DNA of 64,000 bases from Haliotis cracherodii (lineage: Eukaryota). Made by a program: the position numbers and the translations under genes. The stretch spans positions 51,212,001-51,276,000 of the forward strand of contig NW_027266343.1 of the NCBI RefSeq assembly GCF_022045235.1, read 5' to 3'. The notes beneath the pieces were generated by a model that did not search any database, was not told the origin of the DNA, and was given only the letters and a program-made list of their open reading frames with translations. This document shows, one piece after another, positions 1,963-57,075 of the stretch. How positions within the stretch are numbered: position 1 is the first letter of the stretch; each line of letters starts with the position of its first letter.

Positions 1963-3380
1963 CATGTCAGTAGCAGTTGGTGATGATGACAACTGTAGAC
2001 ACGTGAGAGTGTTGTCTATTGTCATTTCAGTAGCAGACAGCTGGTGATGATGACAACTGTGGACACGTGAGAGTGTTGTCTATTGTCATTTCAGTAGCAG
2101 ACAGCTGGTGATGATGACAACTGTGGACACTAGAGAGTGTTGTCTATTGCCATGTCAGTAGCTGACAGCTGGTGATGATGACAGCTGTGGACACGTGAGA
2201 GTGTGGTCTATTTCCATGTCAGTAGCAGACAGCTGGTAATGATGACAACTGTGGACACGTGAGAGTGTGGTCTATTGTCATTTCAGTAGCAGACAGCTGG
2301 TAATGATGACAACTGTGGACACTAGAGAGTGTGGCCTATTGCCATGTCAGTAGCAGACAGCTGGTAATGATGACAACTTTGGACACGTGAGAGTGTGGTC
2401 TATTGCCATGTCAGTAGCAGACAGCTGGTAATGATGACAACTGTGGACACGTGAGAGTGTGGTCTATTGCCATGTCAGTAGCAGACAGCTGGTAATGATG
2501 ACAACTTTGGACACGTGAGATTGTGGTCTATTGTCATTTCAGTAGCAGACAGCTGGTAATGATGACAACTGTGGACACGTGAGAGTGTGGTCTATTGCCA
2601 TGTCAGTAGCAGACATCTGGTGATAATGACAACTTTGGACACGTGAGAGTGTGGTCTATTGCCATGTCAGTAGCAGACAGCTGGTGATGATGACAACTGT
2701 GGACTCGTGAGAGTGTGGTCTATTGCCATGTCAGTAGCAGACAGCTGGTGATGATGACAACTGTAGATACGTGAGAGTGTGGTCTACTGCCATGTCAGTA
2801 GCTGACAGCTCGTAATGATGACAACTGTAGACACGTGAGAGTGTGGTCTATTGCCATGTCAGTAGCAGACAGCTGGTAATGATGACAACTGTGGACACGT
2901 GAGAGTGTGGTCTATTGCCATGTCAGTAGCTGACAGCTCGTAATGATGACAACTGTAGACACGTGAGAGTGTGGTTTATTGCCATGTCAGTAGCAGACAG
3001 CTGGTAATGATGACAACTGTGGACACGTGAGAGTGTGGTCTATTGCCATGTCAGTAGCTGACAGCTCGTAATGATGACAACTGTAGACACGTGAGAGTGT
3101 GGTCTATTTCCATGTCAGTAGCTGATAGCTCGTAATGATGACAACTGTAGACACGTGAAAGTGTGGTCTATTGCCATGTCAGTAGCAGACAGCTGGTAAT
3201 GATGACAACTGTAGACACGTGAGAGTGTGGTCTATTGCTATGTCAGTAGCAGACAGCTGATAATGATGACAGTTGTAGACACGTGAGAGTGTGGTCTATT
3301 GCCATGTCAGAAGCAGACAGCTGGTAATGATGACAGCTGTTGACACGTGAGAGTGTTGAATATTGTCATGTCAGTAGCTC
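1963..3380. repeat. 64-bp minisatellite, about 22 copies
   Basis: Unit gccatgtcagtagcagacagctggtaatgatgacaactgtggacacgtgagagtgtggtctatt (starts at 2341 and 2405, for example); no unique spacers. Confidence 0.95.
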
Positions 3381-4084: not shown

Positions 4085-5040
4085 ACGTTGTCACGTTGTG
4101 AGCACCCGTCTCTCTGACATCAGCGCTACAAATCTCTTCTCGACACCTTTGTAAGCCCGATTTTGTCTGTCTTCTAATTCTGTCATGGAGGGACAGGCTT
4201 GTTGGACAATAGCTGATGGGTTTAGAAGAGGGGTTTGTGTATATGTGTGAATGTGTTGTGAAGCCACAAGACCGCGCAGCAGTCACGCCTCTGGTGGATG
4301 GAGATTAAATACATGCATATGTATACATCATGTTTAGTTATCCATGTGTTCGCGTCATGAAATAAGATCGCGTGGAATTCTATTTGCTGTGCTTTTTTTG
4401 GAGATATACAATATGTACATATCTTCTGGTAAATATTCCCACGGTAACTCTTTTCAAATACGTTGGAGTGAGTAAGCATCTGGTTGTGACTGTTTTCTGA
4501 TATATTTAGATTGATTCAAGTGATAAAAAAAGAAATATACTTAGCAAACCATGTAATTTATTTCGCATGAAATGTTCTTAACAGTGACCTTAAACACTTC
4601 ATTAAGCACGAAATAGGATGAAATAATCAACACTTGTCCACGGGTCACGCTTCTTCTGTTCGGGTGTAATTATATGGTCAAAATCCTATAAGCTTTCACT
4701 GTAAGGCCGCAGTGGGATAGGTCAAGCGTGGCCAAAACATGGGAAAAGGACAGTGTACATTGTAATATGTTGGTGTATATTAACACCTGCATTGTGTGCA
4801 ACTGACCTCGTTGACCATTGAATCAACAGGGTTAATATACTTACTAGATGTTATGAAGCCACAAGTGGTTGTCGTAAACAATGTCGTAAAGGTGTGCCAC
4901 GTGCAGTTTAATCAGATGTCGTATGGAATGTGTTTGTAGACGACAGATAGTTGTTTATTCAACGTAAACGATATTAACAGATCTTGATGTGTGCGTTGCT
5001 CCACGAGTGCATGAAATATGACAAACAATAAATATATAAA

Positions 5041-5628
5041 GGGAAGAGAATGTATGGATGTCAACTTCTTTATTATGAGGAACACCACGTTTCGGAGTAT
5101 ATGTTTACTCCTTCATCAGGGAAGAGAATTTATGGATGTCAACTTCTTATTTATGAGGAACACAAAGTTTCGGAGTATATACTTATTCCTTCATCAGGGA
5201 AGAGAATTTATGGATGCCAACTTCTTTATTATGAGGAACACCACGTTTCGGAGTATATACTTACTCCTTCACCAGTGAAGAGAATTTATGAATGCCAACT
5301 TCTTTATTATGAGGAACACAACGTTGCGGAGTATAAACTTACTCCTTCATCAGGGAAGAGTATCTATGGATGTCAACTTCTTTATTATGAGGAACACCAC
5401 GTTTCGGAGTATAGACTTACTCCTTCATCTGGGATGAGAATTTATGAATGCCAACTTCTTTATTATGAGGAACACAACGTTGCGGAGTATAAACTTACTC
5501 CTCCATCAGGGAAGAGTATCTATGGATGTCAACTTCTTTATCAGGCCCTGGTGAAGGAGTAAGTGTATACACCAAAACGTTGAGTTCCCTATAATAAAGA
5601 AGATGACACCAATCAATTCTCTTCCTTG
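5041..5628 (-). repeat. 78-bp tandem array (about 6.4 units) plus one inverted unit; Penelope-terminus/hammerhead derived
   Basis: GGGAAGAGAA recurs at 5041, 5119, 5197. The - strand unit contains CTGATGA-A-GGAGTA..TACTCC-GAAA-CGT; inverted copy at 5543-5628. Confidence 0.85.
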
Positions 5629-12255: not shown

Positions 12256-12754
12256 CCTGATGTACTGACATGAATCTGTTGCTTGCCGCATGTGGCCTAC
12301 ATTTATTCAGACATGAAACCTTTCTTTTGCTGGCTTCATTATGCATAACAGACACATGAAAACTTTTCCATTATTTAAAACTGAGTTGTTGATGAAACTA
12401 GATATATGTGCAAATACAAGGGTGACTATGAAACAATCAAAACGTGTTTCTCGTGCGCCCGACATGCGTGATGCGTGAGTATTTTGTGGAATGGAAACTT
12501 GTTGGAAGCAGCTGCCAAGACAAACATGAACAAAGTATTATTGCTGGCCACACATTGGCTAATATACCTGAGAAAACGGCGCTGGTTGTACTTGTTGGTA
12601 ACGAGCCGTACTGTACAGAGCCAATTTGACTTAGTGTTGTTTTGTCATCAGCATCAACAACAGATGGTAGTGACTAAACCAGTGCATACACACTCGCACC
12701 CTCAGTGCCAAGTCCAGTCTCGCACAACGTTAGGCTTTGATCAGGGCCGCTTCT

Positions 12755-13226
12755 GCTACCTTCGACCGCCGCTGCTACTACTACGACCGCTGCCGCTTCT
12801 GCTACTACGACCGCCGCTGCTAATACTACGACCACCGCTGCTGCTACTACTACGACCACCGCTGCTGCTACTACTACCACCACCGCTGCTGCTACTACTA
12901 CTACTACGACCGCCGCAGCTGCTACTACAACGACCGCTGCTGCTACTACTACGACCGCCGCTGCTGCTACTACTACTACGACCGCCGCAGCTGCTACTAC
13001 TACGACCACCGCTGCTGCTACTACTACGATCACCGCTGCTGCTGGTACTACTACGACCGCCGCTTCTGCTACTACTACCACGACCACCGCTGCTGCTACT
13101 ACTATGACCGCCACCGCTGCTACTACTACTTGTCCTACTATACTACTACTGCTACTACTACTACTAAAACAACTACTACTACTTCCACTTCTACTACGTC
13201 TACTACGTCTACTACACCTACTACGT

Positions 13227-13257
<31 letters not shown>
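12755..13257. repeat. Compound trinucleotide repeat (ACT/ACG/ACC/GCC/GCT)n
   Basis: Directly visible; accounts for the low-complexity ORFs at 12475, 12674 and 13104. Confidence 0.9.
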
Positions 13258-14504
13258 GTAAGAGGGTGGTCAGGCTCGATGCTTGGTGCATGTTATTGCA
13301 TTCCAGCTGCGTGGATCGATGCGCATGGTGTCACTCACCGGATTGTCTGGTCCACATGGGTACACATTGTAACCACGTGGTGTGTGTGTTATCATACGGT
13401 GTGGGTTGTTGTCCATGTTATAAACCAGTGGTTTCAATTAACCATACTCGACTATTTACAGATCATGGTGCTCAAGCTGTAATGTTGATGAGTGTGGTTA
13501 AAGACATCTTTTTAAATAATCAACTAGTTACAAAGGGCACGAATGCCTACACGTCTAACCTCAGTTGGCTGTGCAGAGGTATATTCTTTAGGCTTGCCAG
13601 AAAGCTATGACCGTGGGTTCGAATCCCAGTTCACTCTGATTACGTTTCTTGGTTTGCCAGCACAGTATTCTTGATCGTGGGTTTCGCCAATGTGGTCAAC
13701 ATATAAGTTCTACATTAATTCGGGTTTTCCTCCCACATCAAGCTGACACGCTGCGATATTACTGAAATACTGTTCAAAGCGGCGTTAAAACAATCTCCCT
13801 CATTCACAAACGTGATGTTCTGAAGAGTATTTGAGACGGTAGTATGTTGTTGTTGTTGTTTGTTGTCTAAGGCCGCACTCCAGCAATATTCCAACTATAT
13901 GACGGCGGTCTGTAATTAATAGAGCCTGGGCCAGACAATCCAGTGATTAGGATACGATGCTATGTATAAATCAAGTCAGCGAGCCTGACCACCCGATCCC
14001 GTTAGTCGCCTCTTACGAACATGACAACGTTACAGTAACACTGTCAGATGTCCCCCGCCGTGTTGTTGCTGGAATATTGCTAAAAGTGGTGTAAAATCAA
14101 ACTCACTCACTCACTGTTTTAATAAAGCACAGTTCACGATATATGTTGGAACCAACAGACATAAAACATCATCCTATCGTAAAACTGTCGGCGATATACA
14201 TCGCCGGTGTCTCAGAGTGCATATTTCAATATCAATCATATACATATCGTCAACGGCTGTCATTTCAAACTACCGTTATGTACCCTTCTGTGCCAGCACT
14301 TCGTGTATGTAGCACTGTCAAGGTTGATGATAACATCTAATAGAGACGGCCAAGGTCACGCCCGGAGAGCACTGCCAGATGGCACAGATACAGAATGACT
14401 TCAGACGCGTGGTGATGTGCTACACTGCGCTATGCTGTAGGCTGTTGGTGTCATTCTTCCTGTCCAACACCTCGATAGGGGATATTTCCGCTGTTTGCTG
14501 TTTG

Positions 14505-20043: not shown

Positions 20044-20208
20044 GGGCGGTCGGGTAGCCTAGTGGTTAAAGCGTTCGCTCGTCACGCCAAAGACCCGGGT
20101 TCGATTCCCGACATGGGTACAATGTGTGAAGCCCATTTCTGGTGTCCCCCGCCGTGATATTGCTGGAATATTGCTAATAGCGGCGTAAAACCATACTCAC
20201 TCACTCAC
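20044..20208 (+). mobile_element. tRNA(Asp-like)-derived SINE family B with 12-bp TSD
   Basis: A box TAGCCTAGTGG, B box GGTTCGATTCC, (CACT)n tail; ttcaggtgggta at 20032-20043 and 20209-20220. Confidence 0.92.
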
Positions 20209-22740: not shown

Positions 22741-24257
22741 AATTATCTTGTGGATACAGGGGATGTTCCGTCTTCGTTGTCTGATCGAGACTTGAGTATT
22801 TCCAGGCCTCCGTAATACAGCTAGAATTCCATGAGTGGCGCTCAACAACCAACAAACAAACTGTACTCAAGGACAATAACTCGTGTCTGGATACAGGAGG
22901 TTACCGTATAGACGTGTCATGTCACGTTCGTTATGCTGAGTCCCAGATGAGTCTCACTGATCCCGTTATGTCCAAGTTATGTACGTAGCAGCCCAACCCT
23001 TAGTATGACTGACCCTGTGGTGAGGGGAAAAGGGATTCGTGTTCAAGGTTATTGCACTTACATACCGCCCTGCCTTTGTGATTCAGCCAAAGTGATTGAT
23101 TGATGTATTGGTTTTTGTCCATGTACTAGTCTGGATTAATGCCGGTTTTGTCGTGCTAGACCGTGCCGCAGTTTAACATGAATACCAACTCAGTGTACCG
23201 ACACCGAACCGACCAATCTTTTTCTTCCCCTAATGTCGAGCACCACGCAGGGTAACAAGTGCCGTCTTTTAACGTCTTATGGTATCCCGCGAATCGAACC
23301 ACCGACTCCACTACACCAACGAGGTGGTTCTGACCCTGTGGGGATTCCGATGTTTACTAATGGTTTTCGGGCTGTATGTAATACGCAATGACGTCAGAGC
23401 AGTAATGGCGTCACATTTTATCATCGACGTACTGTTAACATCTCAAAGACTTTTGAATTGGGTATTTTGCAGTAATATGGTTGGAATATTGCTACCAGCG
23501 ACAACAGCACCGTACGTCATCATTCACTAACGTTATGATTCAACTGTGAAGGCTATCTATGTTCTCATTTAAACGTTGCAGGCCCCAACTATGTTTCAAA
23601 GTGTGTCGGCACCATACTCGTACTCGTGGGTTTCACCAAAATGATAAACGTCTTAGACCTGCATCACTTCGGACTTCCAAACTGACTCGCCGTGATATTA
23701 CTGGAATTCTGGTCAAAGCGGCGTTAAACCCAACTTAATCACTCACTCACGCTTTATAATGCAGCCGTGGACGCTGTCATTGTTCTGATTAAACTGTGGT
23801 AGGTCGTGGCTATTGGCTGTGTCTCAAGGAATTTGTATTATGAAATAAACTTTGATTTCAAACGTATTCAATGCAGTACAACGTCCAGTTAATTGTTCTG
23901 TTGGAGTTGGCAAAATAAGGTTTCACCTGGAACAAATTACAGCAAAATGTATTTCACCATAATGTATTTCTACAAGGTTCCAAGAACAACATACTAAAAG
24001 TCCGAAGCAATCACAGTTTGGGATATATATCTGATGTGCAATATCCAATATGGCCAATAGTTATCAATATATCTTCCATATTTCAAATGAGGTTCAATCT
24101 ATTATTGAACAAAGCATATATCTTTTTGCAAAAAGGTCATACTAGGTTTCTTAAAAAGTTATTCACGAGGTCTACAGAAGGCTTTGACTATTGACAAATC
24201 TACAAAAATTCAACATGGCCGTCAATTTCAAGATGGGCGGCAAGTTTCCTAAATCCC

Positions 24258-24655
24258 TGGTTCAGGGAAATTTGACAGCAAATCGCAATATAAATCAAAT
24301 TCTTCAACCTCGCCTTCTTCCAGTCGCTGACCGCCAGAGAGAGCTGTTTCAACAGCACAACGCTCTACCGCACACAGCTCGTTTCACGGTAGACTACCTT
24401 CATAATGCCAACATCAACGCTTTGCCCTGGCCGTCGAGATCTCCAGGTCTCAACCCAATCGAACACCTCTGGGATGAACGCGATCGACGTGTACGTCAAC
24501 GTCAGAACACGCCGCAGACACTCCCACAACTGGCCAACGCTTTACAAGCAGAATGGCGCAGAATTCCGCAGGACAGAATTCGTACACTTTTCCAGTCAAT
24601 GCCGAGGAGATTCAGAGCCGTGATTGTTGCCCGGGGCGGTCACACGAGATACTGA
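24258..24655 (+). mobile_element. Tc1-family transposase C-terminal fragment (pseudogene)
   Basis: GNLT, FQQHNA.PHTAR, LPWPSRSPGLNPIEHLWD, SMPRR..AVI.ARGGHTRY; second catalytic D appears mutated to H. Confidence 0.9.
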
Positions 24656-46698: not shown

Positions 46699-48810
46699 AC
46701 TCTACTGCTGTGAATGTACTAATTATAAATGAACTATAGGTCTCTGGCCTCCTCAGTACGGACATAAAGAAATCGAACGGGACCTATTCAAGAGAATAAC
46801 AAACGCCATGAAGCGACATTAACTCCATAAGTGACCATCTGTCATTATTTTGCATTGTCGATGTGGAACTAACGTAAAAACGGACGTCAACAGTTGGTGA
46901 ACGGGCCAGACACTTACGATAAAGGGAGACAATTTGAGGGGAGGTCACTCTTGTATGACAATAGTTCCGTGAAAGTGTTATGTTTCAAACAGTGAAATGT
47001 AAAGTGTTATGTTCACTGCAGTCACATATCAGTTGTTATGTTTACTGAAATGAAAATATCACTTTTCGCAACTTTGGAAAACTCTTTCACACTAATAAAT
47101 CATTAGATGTGCAATTTGAGGAGTTTCAGCTGAGACTTGAACGATGAAAGGTAACTGCTTCATTTTGGTAGTTGGCTTCTTTGTGAGGGTCCGTAGTTCA
47201 GGAATGACCTCTCTCCATACCAATTTTGGTTGAAACTATGGAACCATGAGAAGGCTTTAATTTTCAGAACGAAGTGACCTGGTTGGTTTGCATTTGGACA
47301 GCAGTTAAATAAAATAAAAAACATAAAGTAGCTTGTCAAAAATGTGTGGCGCTTCGACTAATAAACTGACACGGCTTTCGTGAATTGTTACTACGCACTG
47401 AGTTATGATCGGGAGTGTAGCACATCCGACTTCGAACGCTGACAGTTTGGTTTATTTCCAACTCATTTGTGCATATGTCTTTGTGTGACGATACAAATTG
47501 TTAACAATGGTGTTCAGTCATCTTATATAATTATTACGTAGTCCTCATATGTATATTGTGTTTGCTGAACATATTAAGATATGCGTTATTTGATTAATAC
47601 AGTAAATGGTTTGGGAAACTAATTTTCAGATGATTCGATTTTATGTCCACTGACATTCAAGAAAAATATGTAAAAGCGTTTTTTATTAATGTGTTTTTTA
47701 TTAATCCTGGGACGGCCAATAAAAGAATAATAGATACCAGACAAAGTGGCTTATAACTTTGATCTACAATCAGACACGCATTTTAAACGTCAACGCCAGA
47801 GATTAATGAGTCTCGAAGTTTAGCCGAAACAGATTACATATGGCGTGAAAGGAAAAATAGGGATGTAAAGAGGTATGAAAATGCCTTGTAGAGGTCATGG
47901 CATGTGGTAGCATAGCACATCAAGTTGACAAGGGACGTGTCATATACAATATACAGTGTATTTGGTCATTGCTCTCACGCTGGTGTGTAGAGGAGAAGAA
48001 ATACCGGGTATCTAAGGAGGTCAATATGGAGGTCAAGATAATTAGAGTGTTCATCAACCGTCTTGTCTGAATGATGTACATTTTGTTGCGATAAACAATA
48101 AAACCCAGAATTTGCTCCATCTCCTTCGTAGCAAACGCAATTTGTGAGTGAGTTGGGTTTAACTCCGCTTTGAACAGTATTCCAGTTATATCACGGCGTG
48201 TCAGCTTAATGTTCGAGGAAAGGCCGACGTGGTGAAAGTCTAGGATGTTTACCACTTCATGTGCTTGAGATCTGAAGATTCATGTTACGATCCTACACGG
48301 TAAAATTGTAACAATGAACATTATTTGTGTTCTGACATTTAATTTCCTTTCATGTCACACTCTCCTTGTTTTCCTAGACAGTATTGATTCTTACCATTGT
48401 CAAACACAAAATTTCCTTTGATGTTTTGTCAGGCGGAACTACATCCTCCAATATCTACGTGTGATTAATTGAATAAAACACTAACAATGTTTGCGGATAT
48501 TGGCAATAATTATGAAATCGAATCCGTCAATCAACTTTGACTAGTCTTGATCTTAAAAGCCGATATGTTAATACTCGGGGCGACTTATGTACACTGGAAG
48601 GACAATACCATTGGTTTTATGCCCAAGCATCGATTGAATTACAGTCGCGTTCGGAATAGACATTCATTGTACAATTGAAGTGTTGTATCACGCATGTTTG
48701 CTCCAGATTCAAGTGGATATGAAGTTTGAAGTCTAGGTTGTGGATATTCTTAAGCATGACGTTTATTCGTTTTGGCCTGTGTTTGTGGAGTCATCTTTCA
48801 CAATTTGGTG

Positions 48811-49432
48811 ATTTGCTGAAATTTCACTTCGACTCTGACTTTACAGGTGGTGATTTTATTCTTTTGGAAGCCTTCTGTGAACCATCAGACACAAAGCTTT
48901 GACTTTTGCAGACGATTTGCTGAAATTTGACTTCGACTCTGACTTTACAGGTGGTGACTTGATTCTTTTTGAAGCCTTATGTGAACCATCAGACTCATAG
49001 CTTTGACTTCTGCAGACGATTTGCTGAAATTTGACTTCAACTCTGACTTTACAGGTGGTGACTTTATTCTTTTGAAAGCCTTCTGTGAACCATCAGACAC
49101 AAAGCTTTGACTTTTGCAGACGATTTGCTAAAAATTGACTTCGACTCTGACTTTACAGGTGGTGACTTTATTCTTTTGAAAGCCTTATGTGAACAATCAG
49201 ACACAAAGCTTTGACTTTTGCAGACGATTTGCTAAAATTTGACTTCGACTCTGACTTTACAGGTGGTGACTTTATTCTTTTTTAAGCCTTATAAGAACCA
49301 TCAGACACAAAGCTTTGACTTTTGCAGACGATTTGTTGAAAATTGACTTCGAATCTGACTTTACAGGTGGTGACTTTATTCTTTTGAAAGCTTTCTGTGA
49401 ACCATCAGACACAAGGTTTTGACTTTTGCAGA
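48811..49432. repeat. 104-bp tandem repeat, about 6 copies
   Basis: gactttacag recurs at 48837, 48941, 49045. Confidence 0.93.
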
Positions 49433-49919: not shown

Positions 49920-50570
49920 CAACCACTGCAATATGTAATCAGAACTAGAGCTTCCTGTGGCTAATACCACTGCTACCTGTAATCATTATCATTGCTACCT
50001 GTAATTAATACCACTGCATTCTGTAAAGAGGACTAGAGCTACGTGCAATTAATACCACTGCTACCTGTAGTTGTTATCATTGCTACCTGCAATTACTAAC
50101 ACTGCTACCTGTAATTATTATCATTGCTAACTGCAATTACTACCACCACTATATGTAATTTTTATCATTGCTTCCTGCAATTAATACCACCACTACCTGT
50201 AACTATTATCATTGCTACCTGCAGTCAATACCACTGCAGTATGTAAAGAGGACTAGAAACACCTGCAATTACTACCACTGCTACCTGTAATTATAATCAT
50301 TGCTTCCTGCAATTAATACCACCACTATCTGTAATTATTATCATTGGATCCTGCAATTAATACCACCACTACCTGTAATTATTATCATTGCTTCCTGCAA
50401 TTAATACTACCACTACCTGTAATTATAAACATTGCTACCTGCAATTACAACCTCTGCTACCTGTAACTATTATCATTGCTACCTGCAACTAATACCACTG
50501 CACTCCGTAAAGAGGACAAGTGCTACCTGCGATTAATACCACTGATACCTGTAGTTATTATCATTGCTAA
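49920..50570. repeat. Higher-order minisatellite of about 21-22-bp subunits
   Basis: Alternating ctacctgtaattattatcattg and ctacctgcaattaataccactg subunits, periodically interrupted by gtaaagaggactagag. Confidence 0.85.
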
Positions 50571-55853: not shown

Positions 55854-57075
55854 TTGAGCAGTCTGCGGATCTGGTGGCTGGCTGTTCCTATGTAGGGAAG
55901 ACTGATGACAAACGGGGCTGTCTGTTGTCGTGGAGGCCGCTCTCAAGGGCTGAGGATGCTGTTGATTGTTTGTTCAACTAGGCTGGTAGGGTAATTGTTG
56001 AAGTTAGTGAATACATGGCGGAGGTGGTTGAGTTCAGTTTTTAGCTGTTGTGGCGTGGAACAGATGTTGACAGCACGTCGGGCTAAGGTGGCGATGATTC
56101 CTCTCTTGATTTGTGGTGGGTGGTTAGAGGAATTGTGCAGATACTGATCCGTATGGGTGGGTTTACGGTAGACACTGGTATGTAGTGTGTTATCGGGATC
56201 TTTCTGTACTCTTACATCTAGGAATGGTAGTTGTCTCTCAGCTTCTTCTTCCATAGTGAACTGCATCCTGGAGTGTTGGGCATTCAGGTGGCTGAGGAGG
56301 GTCTTGGGGTCATGGTCAGGTTGGAGAAAAAGTGTCGTTCAGGAACAGCCAGCCACCAGATCCGCAGACTGCTCAAACACCACGCCAACATTGATACAGT
56401 ATTCCAGAGAGGCAGGACAATCCAGAACATCCTCAGCGCCAATGGCAAGCCCCCTACATCGAAGAAAGAAGACCCAGCTGGAGCCGTATATCACATACAA
56501 TGTGACCGTGGCGACTCCTATGTAGGAGAAACATCCAGGCCCCTACCCATTAGAATAAAAGAACACAAGACCTCAGTACAAAAAAATTACTCAAAATCAG
56601 CCATCTCCGACCACACCCAAACCCACCCCGATCACAACATCCAGTGGAACAACATCAAGATCCTGGCCATCAACCAATCAGACTACAAAATCAGGAAACT
56701 CCTAGAAGCCATCTACATCAAAAGGATCCAGCCAGCAATGAACAGAGACCAAGGCTATTAAATCCCGCCTGCTTACCATCACCTAATTGCTAAATCCCTT
56801 TGTCCATCCAATTAATACAGTGGCTTCCATCATCTCCATCAGTCTGCTTGTTTACTCTGTGTTCATTAGTCATCCACTGGCTTCCATTTAGCTTAATCAC
56901 CTCTCTGTGTCCATCAACTAGTCACTGTAACAACTTAGATGTCAATAAGTGTATATATACCTATGTTGTTTAGCCCTATCCATCAATTGCTTGATAAAGG
57001 TGTTAGGATCTACACCGAAACGTCGCACTAATTGTAATTAAGAAGTTGTTCATCCATAGAACTCGTCTTACTGTA
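55854..57075 (+). mobile_element. Penelope-like retroelement, 5'-truncated and 5'-inverted (RT C-terminus on -, GIY-YIG endonuclease on +)
   Basis: - strand QFTMEEE..QLPFLDV..SVYRKPTHTDQYL..SNHP; + strand GAVYHIQC..SYVGETSRPL..RIKEH..SAISDH..LLEAIYI..MNRDQG; hammerhead-like module at the 3' end. Confidence 0.93.
56984..57034 (+). ncRNA. Minimal type I hammerhead ribozyme of the Penelope-like element (U3-A8 core variant)
   Basis: TGC-TTGATAA-A-GGTGT(taggatct)ACACC-GAAA-CGTC-GCA: stem I TGC/GCA (extendable by CAATT/AATTG), stem II GGTGT/ACACC, GUC cleavage triplet ending at 57024. Confidence 0.7.

Follow-up and report, generated by a model that had tools for sequence, protein, structure and literature searches.

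At positions 5041–5628 of the 64,000 nt stretch of the Haliotis cracherodii genome analysed here (the window) there is a minisatellite which is probably the decayed two-armed stub of a Penelope-like element. One of its arms has become tandem, with a 78 nt unit; a restart of the reverse transcriptase (RT) likely seeded this array, its later growth was likely by duplication of the DNA, and no self-cleavage is predicted for it. The locus is ordinary, such structures are routine in this genome, and the survey made around it is more useful than the locus itself, which is transposon debris. Two leads outweigh it: the stop of family copies at the 5' edge of the hammerhead and the presence of intact short arrays. 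The parts of the stub are the following:

5041–5545, minus strand: direct arm, tandem-amplified, with six full 78 nt units and a partial unit
5510–5545, minus strand: partial unit u0, in which six bases from the start of the hammerhead continue at +47/+48 across a 2 nt microhomology, read directly from the sequence
5546–5628, plus strand: inverted arm, which meets the array in head-to-head orientation at the 5' edge of the hammerhead; no intact ribozyme

Layout of the locus and its parent family

TRF places the tandem repeat at 5040–5541, with period 78, 6.4 copies, 89% matches and a score of 801. A preliminary description, made from the letters alone, had proposed a minisatellite of 78 nt hammerhead modules on the minus strand, and both the repeat and the unit sequence quoted there are confirmed. 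The minimal type I module which it saw in the unit is also supported: on the minus strand each unit reads as hammerhead core, extra A, 6 bp stem II and GAAA-CGU. It spans from C3 of the hammerhead (+0) to the short 3' end of its family (+78), and it carries no flanking host DNA. The head-to-tail junction joins exactly these two natural boundaries, +0 and +78, with a 1 nt overlap (C); one unit has TTCA ahead of the core. The inverted copy which had been described at 5543–5628 does close the array, at 5546–5628. It is 79–84% complementary to every unit and can be followed to about 5635, where it possibly ends with an eroded start of a tail. Compared with the family majority it has 12 changed sites and the array units have 3–7, so that the two arms may be separate insertions. 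A single tidy event is also disfavoured because both arms end short and no target-site duplication of 5 nt or more is found around the locus at four choices of its boundaries.

Both outer junctions, of the left flank with the array and of the inverted arm with the right flank, are present in contigs of other sequencing runs: two with the same species label (one possibly the source sample) and one with another label. An assembly artefact at these two junctions was rejected, since these contigs cross them. The copy number of the array rests on the assembly, as no record spans it whole. The contig with the other label has 43 differences in 787 bases, which makes the insertion likely old. We have also rejected as a gene the stop-free frame of 176 codons at 5032–5562 of the plus strand, antisense to the array; it is likely a by-product of the 26-codon period and has no other support.

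Other minisatellites of the window lie at 1974–3378, 33542–33969, 48810–49432 and 49962–50569, with periods 64, 71, 104 and 44; a scan of the window for hammerhead motifs lists none in them. A Thr/Ala-rich low-complexity frame at 12741–13610 lies over a 24–27 nt repeat and may be a mucin-like exon or a plain repeat. Two near-identical tRNA-like sequences (20048–20119 and 28477–28548) score above the Rfam cut-off with broken stems and are likely the heads of tRNA-derived SINEs. A frame fragment at 24188–24655 appears to resemble the C-terminus of a Tc1/mariner-type transposase.

The array unit represents the 3' tip of a Penelope-like family, with RT and GIY-YIG, which is abundant in the genome. 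One 78 nt unit used as query gave 1449 first-look candidates in the 1.18 Gb genome, 40 of which were scored. The core motif with a free spacer of 16 nt has 1140 exact matches in the genome, versus none for a reversed control, and a 22 nt motif from the 3' part of the unit has 1912. The units of the array match their own family at 89–94%. Upstream of this tip, longer copies have a non-coding stretch, preceded by a frame in which two cysteines lie between a GIY-type and a YIG-type motif, an arrangement named for Penelope endonucleases in PMC8557442. The same hammerhead lies about 320–390 nt past the end of this frame in 12 of the 19 loci where a frame end was found, out of 20 examined. A HMMER search with the family frame gave 1617 homologues at E≤0.001, and 12 of them, picked by length or top score from 150 listed, were scanned with Pfam. 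Nine match RVT_1 at E≤0.01 (eight above Pfam's cut-off), one of which also matches GIY-YIG on the matched stretch; another is an ankyrin protein and two have no match. There was no relevant Pfam match in four native frame fragments of the family, nothing relevant in a PDB sequence search and no homologue at E≤1e-10 in a word-seeded search among longer proteins. From its motifs, compared by eye with those in PMC8557442, the family appears to be of the EN+ Penelope/Poseidon type. The preliminary description had derived the unit from a Penelope terminus and had set its association with Penelope ends across the genome as a test beforehand; this association is present and favours that origin.

The ends of the family were mapped on contig 1 (to 59 Mb) in 73 loci, which belong to the first 100 among the 1912 matches of the 3' motif and gave 81 arms anchored on their 3' part. 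These counts depend on one reference copy, some of the upstream ends may be imitated by subfamily indels, and the two arms of a pair are not independent observations. There are two fixed 3' ends, at about +80 and +112: 30 arms end at +77 to +85 and 37 at +109 to +113. PMC11167929 links such a tail signature, in which a Penelope-like terminus has an optional tail of 30–40 nt, to two start sites of the RT. At the other side, 35 of the 81 arms have their 5' end at −11 to +6 relative to C3, which corresponds to 4.5 per 100 nt at risk. Downstream, at +7 to +45, there are 23 (0.9 per 100 nt); upstream there are none at −29 to −12 and 23 further up (1.2 per 100 nt beyond −12). A pile-up at the hammerhead cleavage site was considered and rejected: no clear peak is found there (6/81 at +32 to +36, 1.6 per 100 nt vs 0.9 around), and the ends cluster at the 5' edge of the hammerhead. 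This clustering fits the report of uncut RNA as the main template (PMC11167929). A narrow literature search found no report of the clustering itself, and one may exist.

A head-to-head inverted arm is found in 65 of 115 sampled loci, five of which also have a tandem part. An exact target-site duplication of 7–14 nt is present in 22 of 53 arm pairs (49 loci), versus 0–4 in 20 shuffles, and all 22 pairs have one short and one tailed arm. These duplications indicate that two-armed stubs are often single insertions, as in PMC3846280, where the duplication is optional for truncated Penelope insertions.

State of the hammerhead

The parent hammerhead was studied in 58 single loci of contig 1; 54 gave an ungapped core and three of other subfamilies were dropped, which leaves 51 copies. 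They were chosen by the core motif and thus do not test core conservation in the family. Position 17 is U in 49 of the 51. Stem I is CAC/GUG, with all three pairs in 37 copies. An unconstrained predicted fold of one parent copy does not take the hammerhead conformation, so that the parent, too, is a putative ribozyme.

The preliminary description had compared the unit with an element at 57036–57064, which belongs to a fragment outside the array:

55943–57064, plus strand: sister Penelope-like fragment, used as comparison element
55943–56338, minus strand: inverted RT-thumb-like piece
56231–56761, plus strand: GIY-YIG-type frame
from 56991, plus strand: minimal hammerhead with U3-A8

The likeness is real, 73% over 66 nt for the element at 56991–57064, but it is a likeness to a sister family, with 674 exact core matches in the genome. 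As a parent of the array this element was rejected: it has U3-A8 and 73% identity, versus 89–94% between the units and their own family. The RT-thumb-like piece is bounded by a perfect 36 nt inverted repeat (55854–55889 and 56341–56376).

Comparison of the families also bears on the covariation of stem II across copies, the second test set beforehand, which likewise favours the preliminary description. Covariation is found between sister families, and hardly within the family, where one double change occurs among 51 copies. The compensatory forms of stem II are GGAGUA/UACUCC, GGAGCA/UGCUCC, GGGGC/GCCCC and GGUGU/ACACC. Stem I is also compensated, CAC/GUG in the parent family versus UGC/GCA in the sister family, and C3-G8 is replaced by U3-A8. 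Two outlying copies (L110 and L114) keep only two pairs of stem II. By its sequence, the parent hammerhead matches the minimal hammerheads of PMC4209133.

The full units of the array, all on the minus strand, have the following state:

5042–5119, u6 (last at the 3' side): no change in core, stem II or GAAA; triplet GUG; mismatch in stem I; terminates at the natural short 3' end
5120–5197, u5: intact core; one mismatch in stem II; ACGU palindrome broken; stem I mismatched
5198–5275, u4: G in place of core A6; triplet GUG; no stem I
5276–5353, u3: GCAA instead of GAAA; triplet GUU; mismatch in stem I; almost a copy of u1, with 3 differences
5354–5431, u2: A in place of core U4; triplet GUG; mismatch in stem I
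5432–5509, u1: G in place of core A9; GCAA instead of GAAA; triplet GUU; mismatch in stem I

None of the six is a complete hammerhead and every one carries a lesion beyond stem I, as had been noticed in the preliminary description. The catalytic core (CUGANGA and GAAA) is intact in u5 and u6 and broken in the other four. Stem II, with 6 bp, is kept in five units, with the extra base after A9 and the G10.1-C11.1 pair. The triplet is GUU in u1 and u3 and GUG in u2, u4 and u6; in u5 the palindrome is broken. A NUG triplet is not cleavable by the hammerhead (PMC3138052). At the junction the 5' strand of stem I (CAC) is replaced by UCC, or by UCA in u4, against GUG, and the middle pair is mismatched in all six units. 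The energy for closing the three pairs of stem I is +4.5 kcal/mol in all units but u4, where it is +4.3; a parent copy gains 1.6.

Stem I is the decisive loss, since the intact core of u5 and u6 and the GUU of u1 and u3 might complement each other across units. It is on stem I that the predicted inactivity depends: in our model neither a monomer nor a cross-unit dimer gives a stable hammerhead without it. In the fold predicted for the entire minus strand, the inverted arm and one unit form a long hairpin. Rfam reports no hammerhead family in the window at E≤1, which counts neither way, as minimal variants are poorly covered. Every copy in the array is damaged and the array is likely an inactive leftover of transposon DNA; the earlier suggestion that its copies are dead is probably right.

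Related arrays and the growth of the array

Head-to-tail hammerhead junctions are found in at least 27 loci of the genome, including this array, with periods of 39–89 nt, so that its unit is not, contrary to the preliminary description, unusually short. They were detected with two consecutive-core patterns, which miss longer periods and degenerate arrays such as a 63 nt array in L134; 25 of the 27 were examined in detail. The junction is unique at every examined locus except one pair, L067 and L223 (C1:73.22 Mb and C7:30.79 Mb), which have the same 72 nt array within a shared segment of over 1 kb with 94% identity. Mobility of the array was rejected for this pair, as the flanks are shared. The unit of L220 (561–1199), about 73 nt long, consists of two hammerhead fragments in inverted orientation to each other.

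We call a unit complete when it has the core, GAAA, a GUH triplet and three stem I pairs (wobble allowed), with stem II and palindrome left unscored. Among the 17 arrays with at least four detected units, nine have no complete unit, six are at least half complete and two lie between. Such arrays grow regardless of the state of the ribozyme, since nine of the 17 have no intact unit. The complete units in the six amount to 24/30, 9/13, 11/16, 6/11, 4/6 and 2/4 of those detected. The first value is that of L064 (940–2349, C1:67.136–67.138 Mb), with 31 repeats of 46 nt, which has GUU or GUA triplets and keeps stem I; all 28 matches of its junction lie at this one locus. Half or more of the units are also complete in L224 (C23:12.88 Mb, 84 nt), L234 (C6:26.43 Mb, 69 nt), L066 (C1:29.19 Mb, 87 nt) and L065 (C1:54.26 Mb, 44 nt), the last from a sister subfamily with covarying stem II. 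The 39 nt hammerhead-core arrays L225 (C45:23.29 Mb) and L238 (C78:22.05 Mb) have no complete unit. Intact siblings such as the 46 nt array are better test objects than the 78 nt array. By eye, the natural short 3' end is the joining point in seven of the 25 examined arrays or dimers. Most of the 25 join at inner microhomologies, which count against an RT restart because DNA slippage also explains them.

The units of the 78 nt array share derived variants in 21 pairs, versus a maximum of 12 in 20000 draws of a null model which ignores mutation hot spots and subfamily polymorphism. G17 is confined to u2, u4 and u6, there are just 3 differences between u1 and u3, and u0 shares two variants with u2. 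The signal of parity is partial: 13 of the shared pairs have the same parity and 8 a different one. Ten of the 21 stem from one loop variant which is also common in the family, so that the period-two pattern rests on the remaining variants. This sharing indicates a stepwise DNA duplication of a mutated dimer.

The origin which we consider probable would start from copies of the family that mostly stop at the 5' edge of the hammerhead and often insert as head-to-head pairs. The RT would have copied from the short 3' end to this edge and restarted at the same 3' end, which would create the first head-to-tail junction and remove the 5' strand of stem I, with the predicted loss of a stable fold. 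The mutated dimer would then have been duplicated at the DNA level to 6.4 units, as the shared variants suggest. The same origin and the same dead state would be obtained if the first duplication took place after insertion, by slippage or repair of DNA over a short microhomology, with no RT restart. The 1 nt overlap and the TTCA before the core of one unit agree with slippage, as does the inner microhomology of most sibling arrays, and the duplication of a whole stub already spanning +0 to +78 would yield this very junction. However, a unit free of host DNA which ends exactly at the short 3' end of the family, an end also used by seven of the 25 sibling junctions, argues for the restart, and we give slippage a real though small chance.

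It is distinctly improbable that insertion itself produced the multimer at full length, the RT going round a single short linear or circular RNA several times, and that the paired pattern came from later conversion. A partial unit at the 5' side of the array, as in L065, L066 and L067, would suit such a process, and rolling-circle copying of ligated RNA of Penelope-like elements (PLE) has been proposed (PMC4209133). Yet units written from one template should diverge independently, and they share nested variants; a cleaved template would start at +34, where 5' ends show no clear pile-up; and a circle with this junction, devoid of stem I, would be unable to recut itself. An active or recently active mini-retrozyme, transcribed, cut by cross-unit dimers into RNAs of 78 or 156 nt and moved by the Penelope enzyme, is very unlikely indeed. 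The tandem layout, the 6 bp stem II of five units and the presence of core and cleavage site intact in different units speak for it, and weak folds might be rescued, given that cleavage by a PLE hammerhead in vitro depended on its protein (PMC11167929). Against it stand the absence of complete units, the hairpin of inverted arm and unit, and the single locus: with a 23 nt junction pattern and up to one mismatch, all three matches in the genome lie inside this array, which is thus not a mobile retrozyme. The only junction known from two loci lies in the shared segment of L067 and L223. The retrozyme reading of the preliminary description is not upheld by the isolated junction, the incomplete units and the variants shared with period two. 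A two-armed stub, seeded by RT restart and enlarged as DNA, remains the origin which we prefer.

A wider conjecture, which we think unlikely, is that the folded hammerhead, and not its cut, stops the Penelope RT. Copying would halt at its 5' edge and restart or invert, seeding dozens of independent minisatellites, and those which keep stem I would be newborn retrozymes. These would be the arrays of 46 nt x 31 (C1:67.14 Mb), 84 nt x 13 (C23:12.88 Mb) and 69 nt x at least 16 (C6:26.43 Mb); the RNAs from their self-cleavage would be shorter than all units described so far, and the 78 nt array would be a stillborn one.

The 27 independent hammerhead junctions come from one Penelope family and its sisters, with and without complete ribozymes. 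This series bears on how retrozymes arise from Penelope termini and on whether minimal hammerheads cut in vivo.

Comparison with known systems

The hammerheads of this family share with the pseudo-LTR (pLTR) hammerheads of PMC4209133 the extra base before stem II, the G10.1-C11.1 pair and a minimal stem III which is palindromic. Also common to both are truncated copies dispersed in thousands, their pairing on opposite strands and the U3-A8 variant in a sister family. They differ in the parent stem I, which has 3 bp here and 4–5 bp in the paper, and in the parent triplet GUU, although the supplements of the paper may show families of GUU type. In the array, moreover, stem I is lost and the modules are 78 nt apart.

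The head-to-head arms and the duplications of 7–14 nt in the family resemble the truncated inverted-pLTR Penelope insertions of PMC3846280, and the two 3' ends about 33 nt apart recall the two RT start sites of PMC11167929. In contrast with those insertions, one arm of our locus is tandem-amplified and it has no duplication or full tail left.

With the animal non-LTR retrozymes (PMC7229834; bioRxiv 10.64898/2026.07.22.740005) the array shares a tandem repeat derived from a pLTR and a type I hammerhead motif in each unit. The tested retrozymes of PMC7229834 differ from it by their canonical hammerheads, monomers of 150–450 bp and linear and circular RNA. The preprint describes units of 51–972 bp, with at most 7 units in 75% of the families and cleavage in one of nine tested dimers. 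The 39 nt arrays L225 and L238 are below the 51 bp minimum of its main text; its supplements may list shorter ones. Its test for an active retrozyme is the presence of two consecutive complete motifs; the array lacks them, and its unit junction is not dispersed. The preprint proposes a local amplification of PLE termini. Our array is such a minisatellite of a Penelope terminus, and the route to it had already been proposed there.
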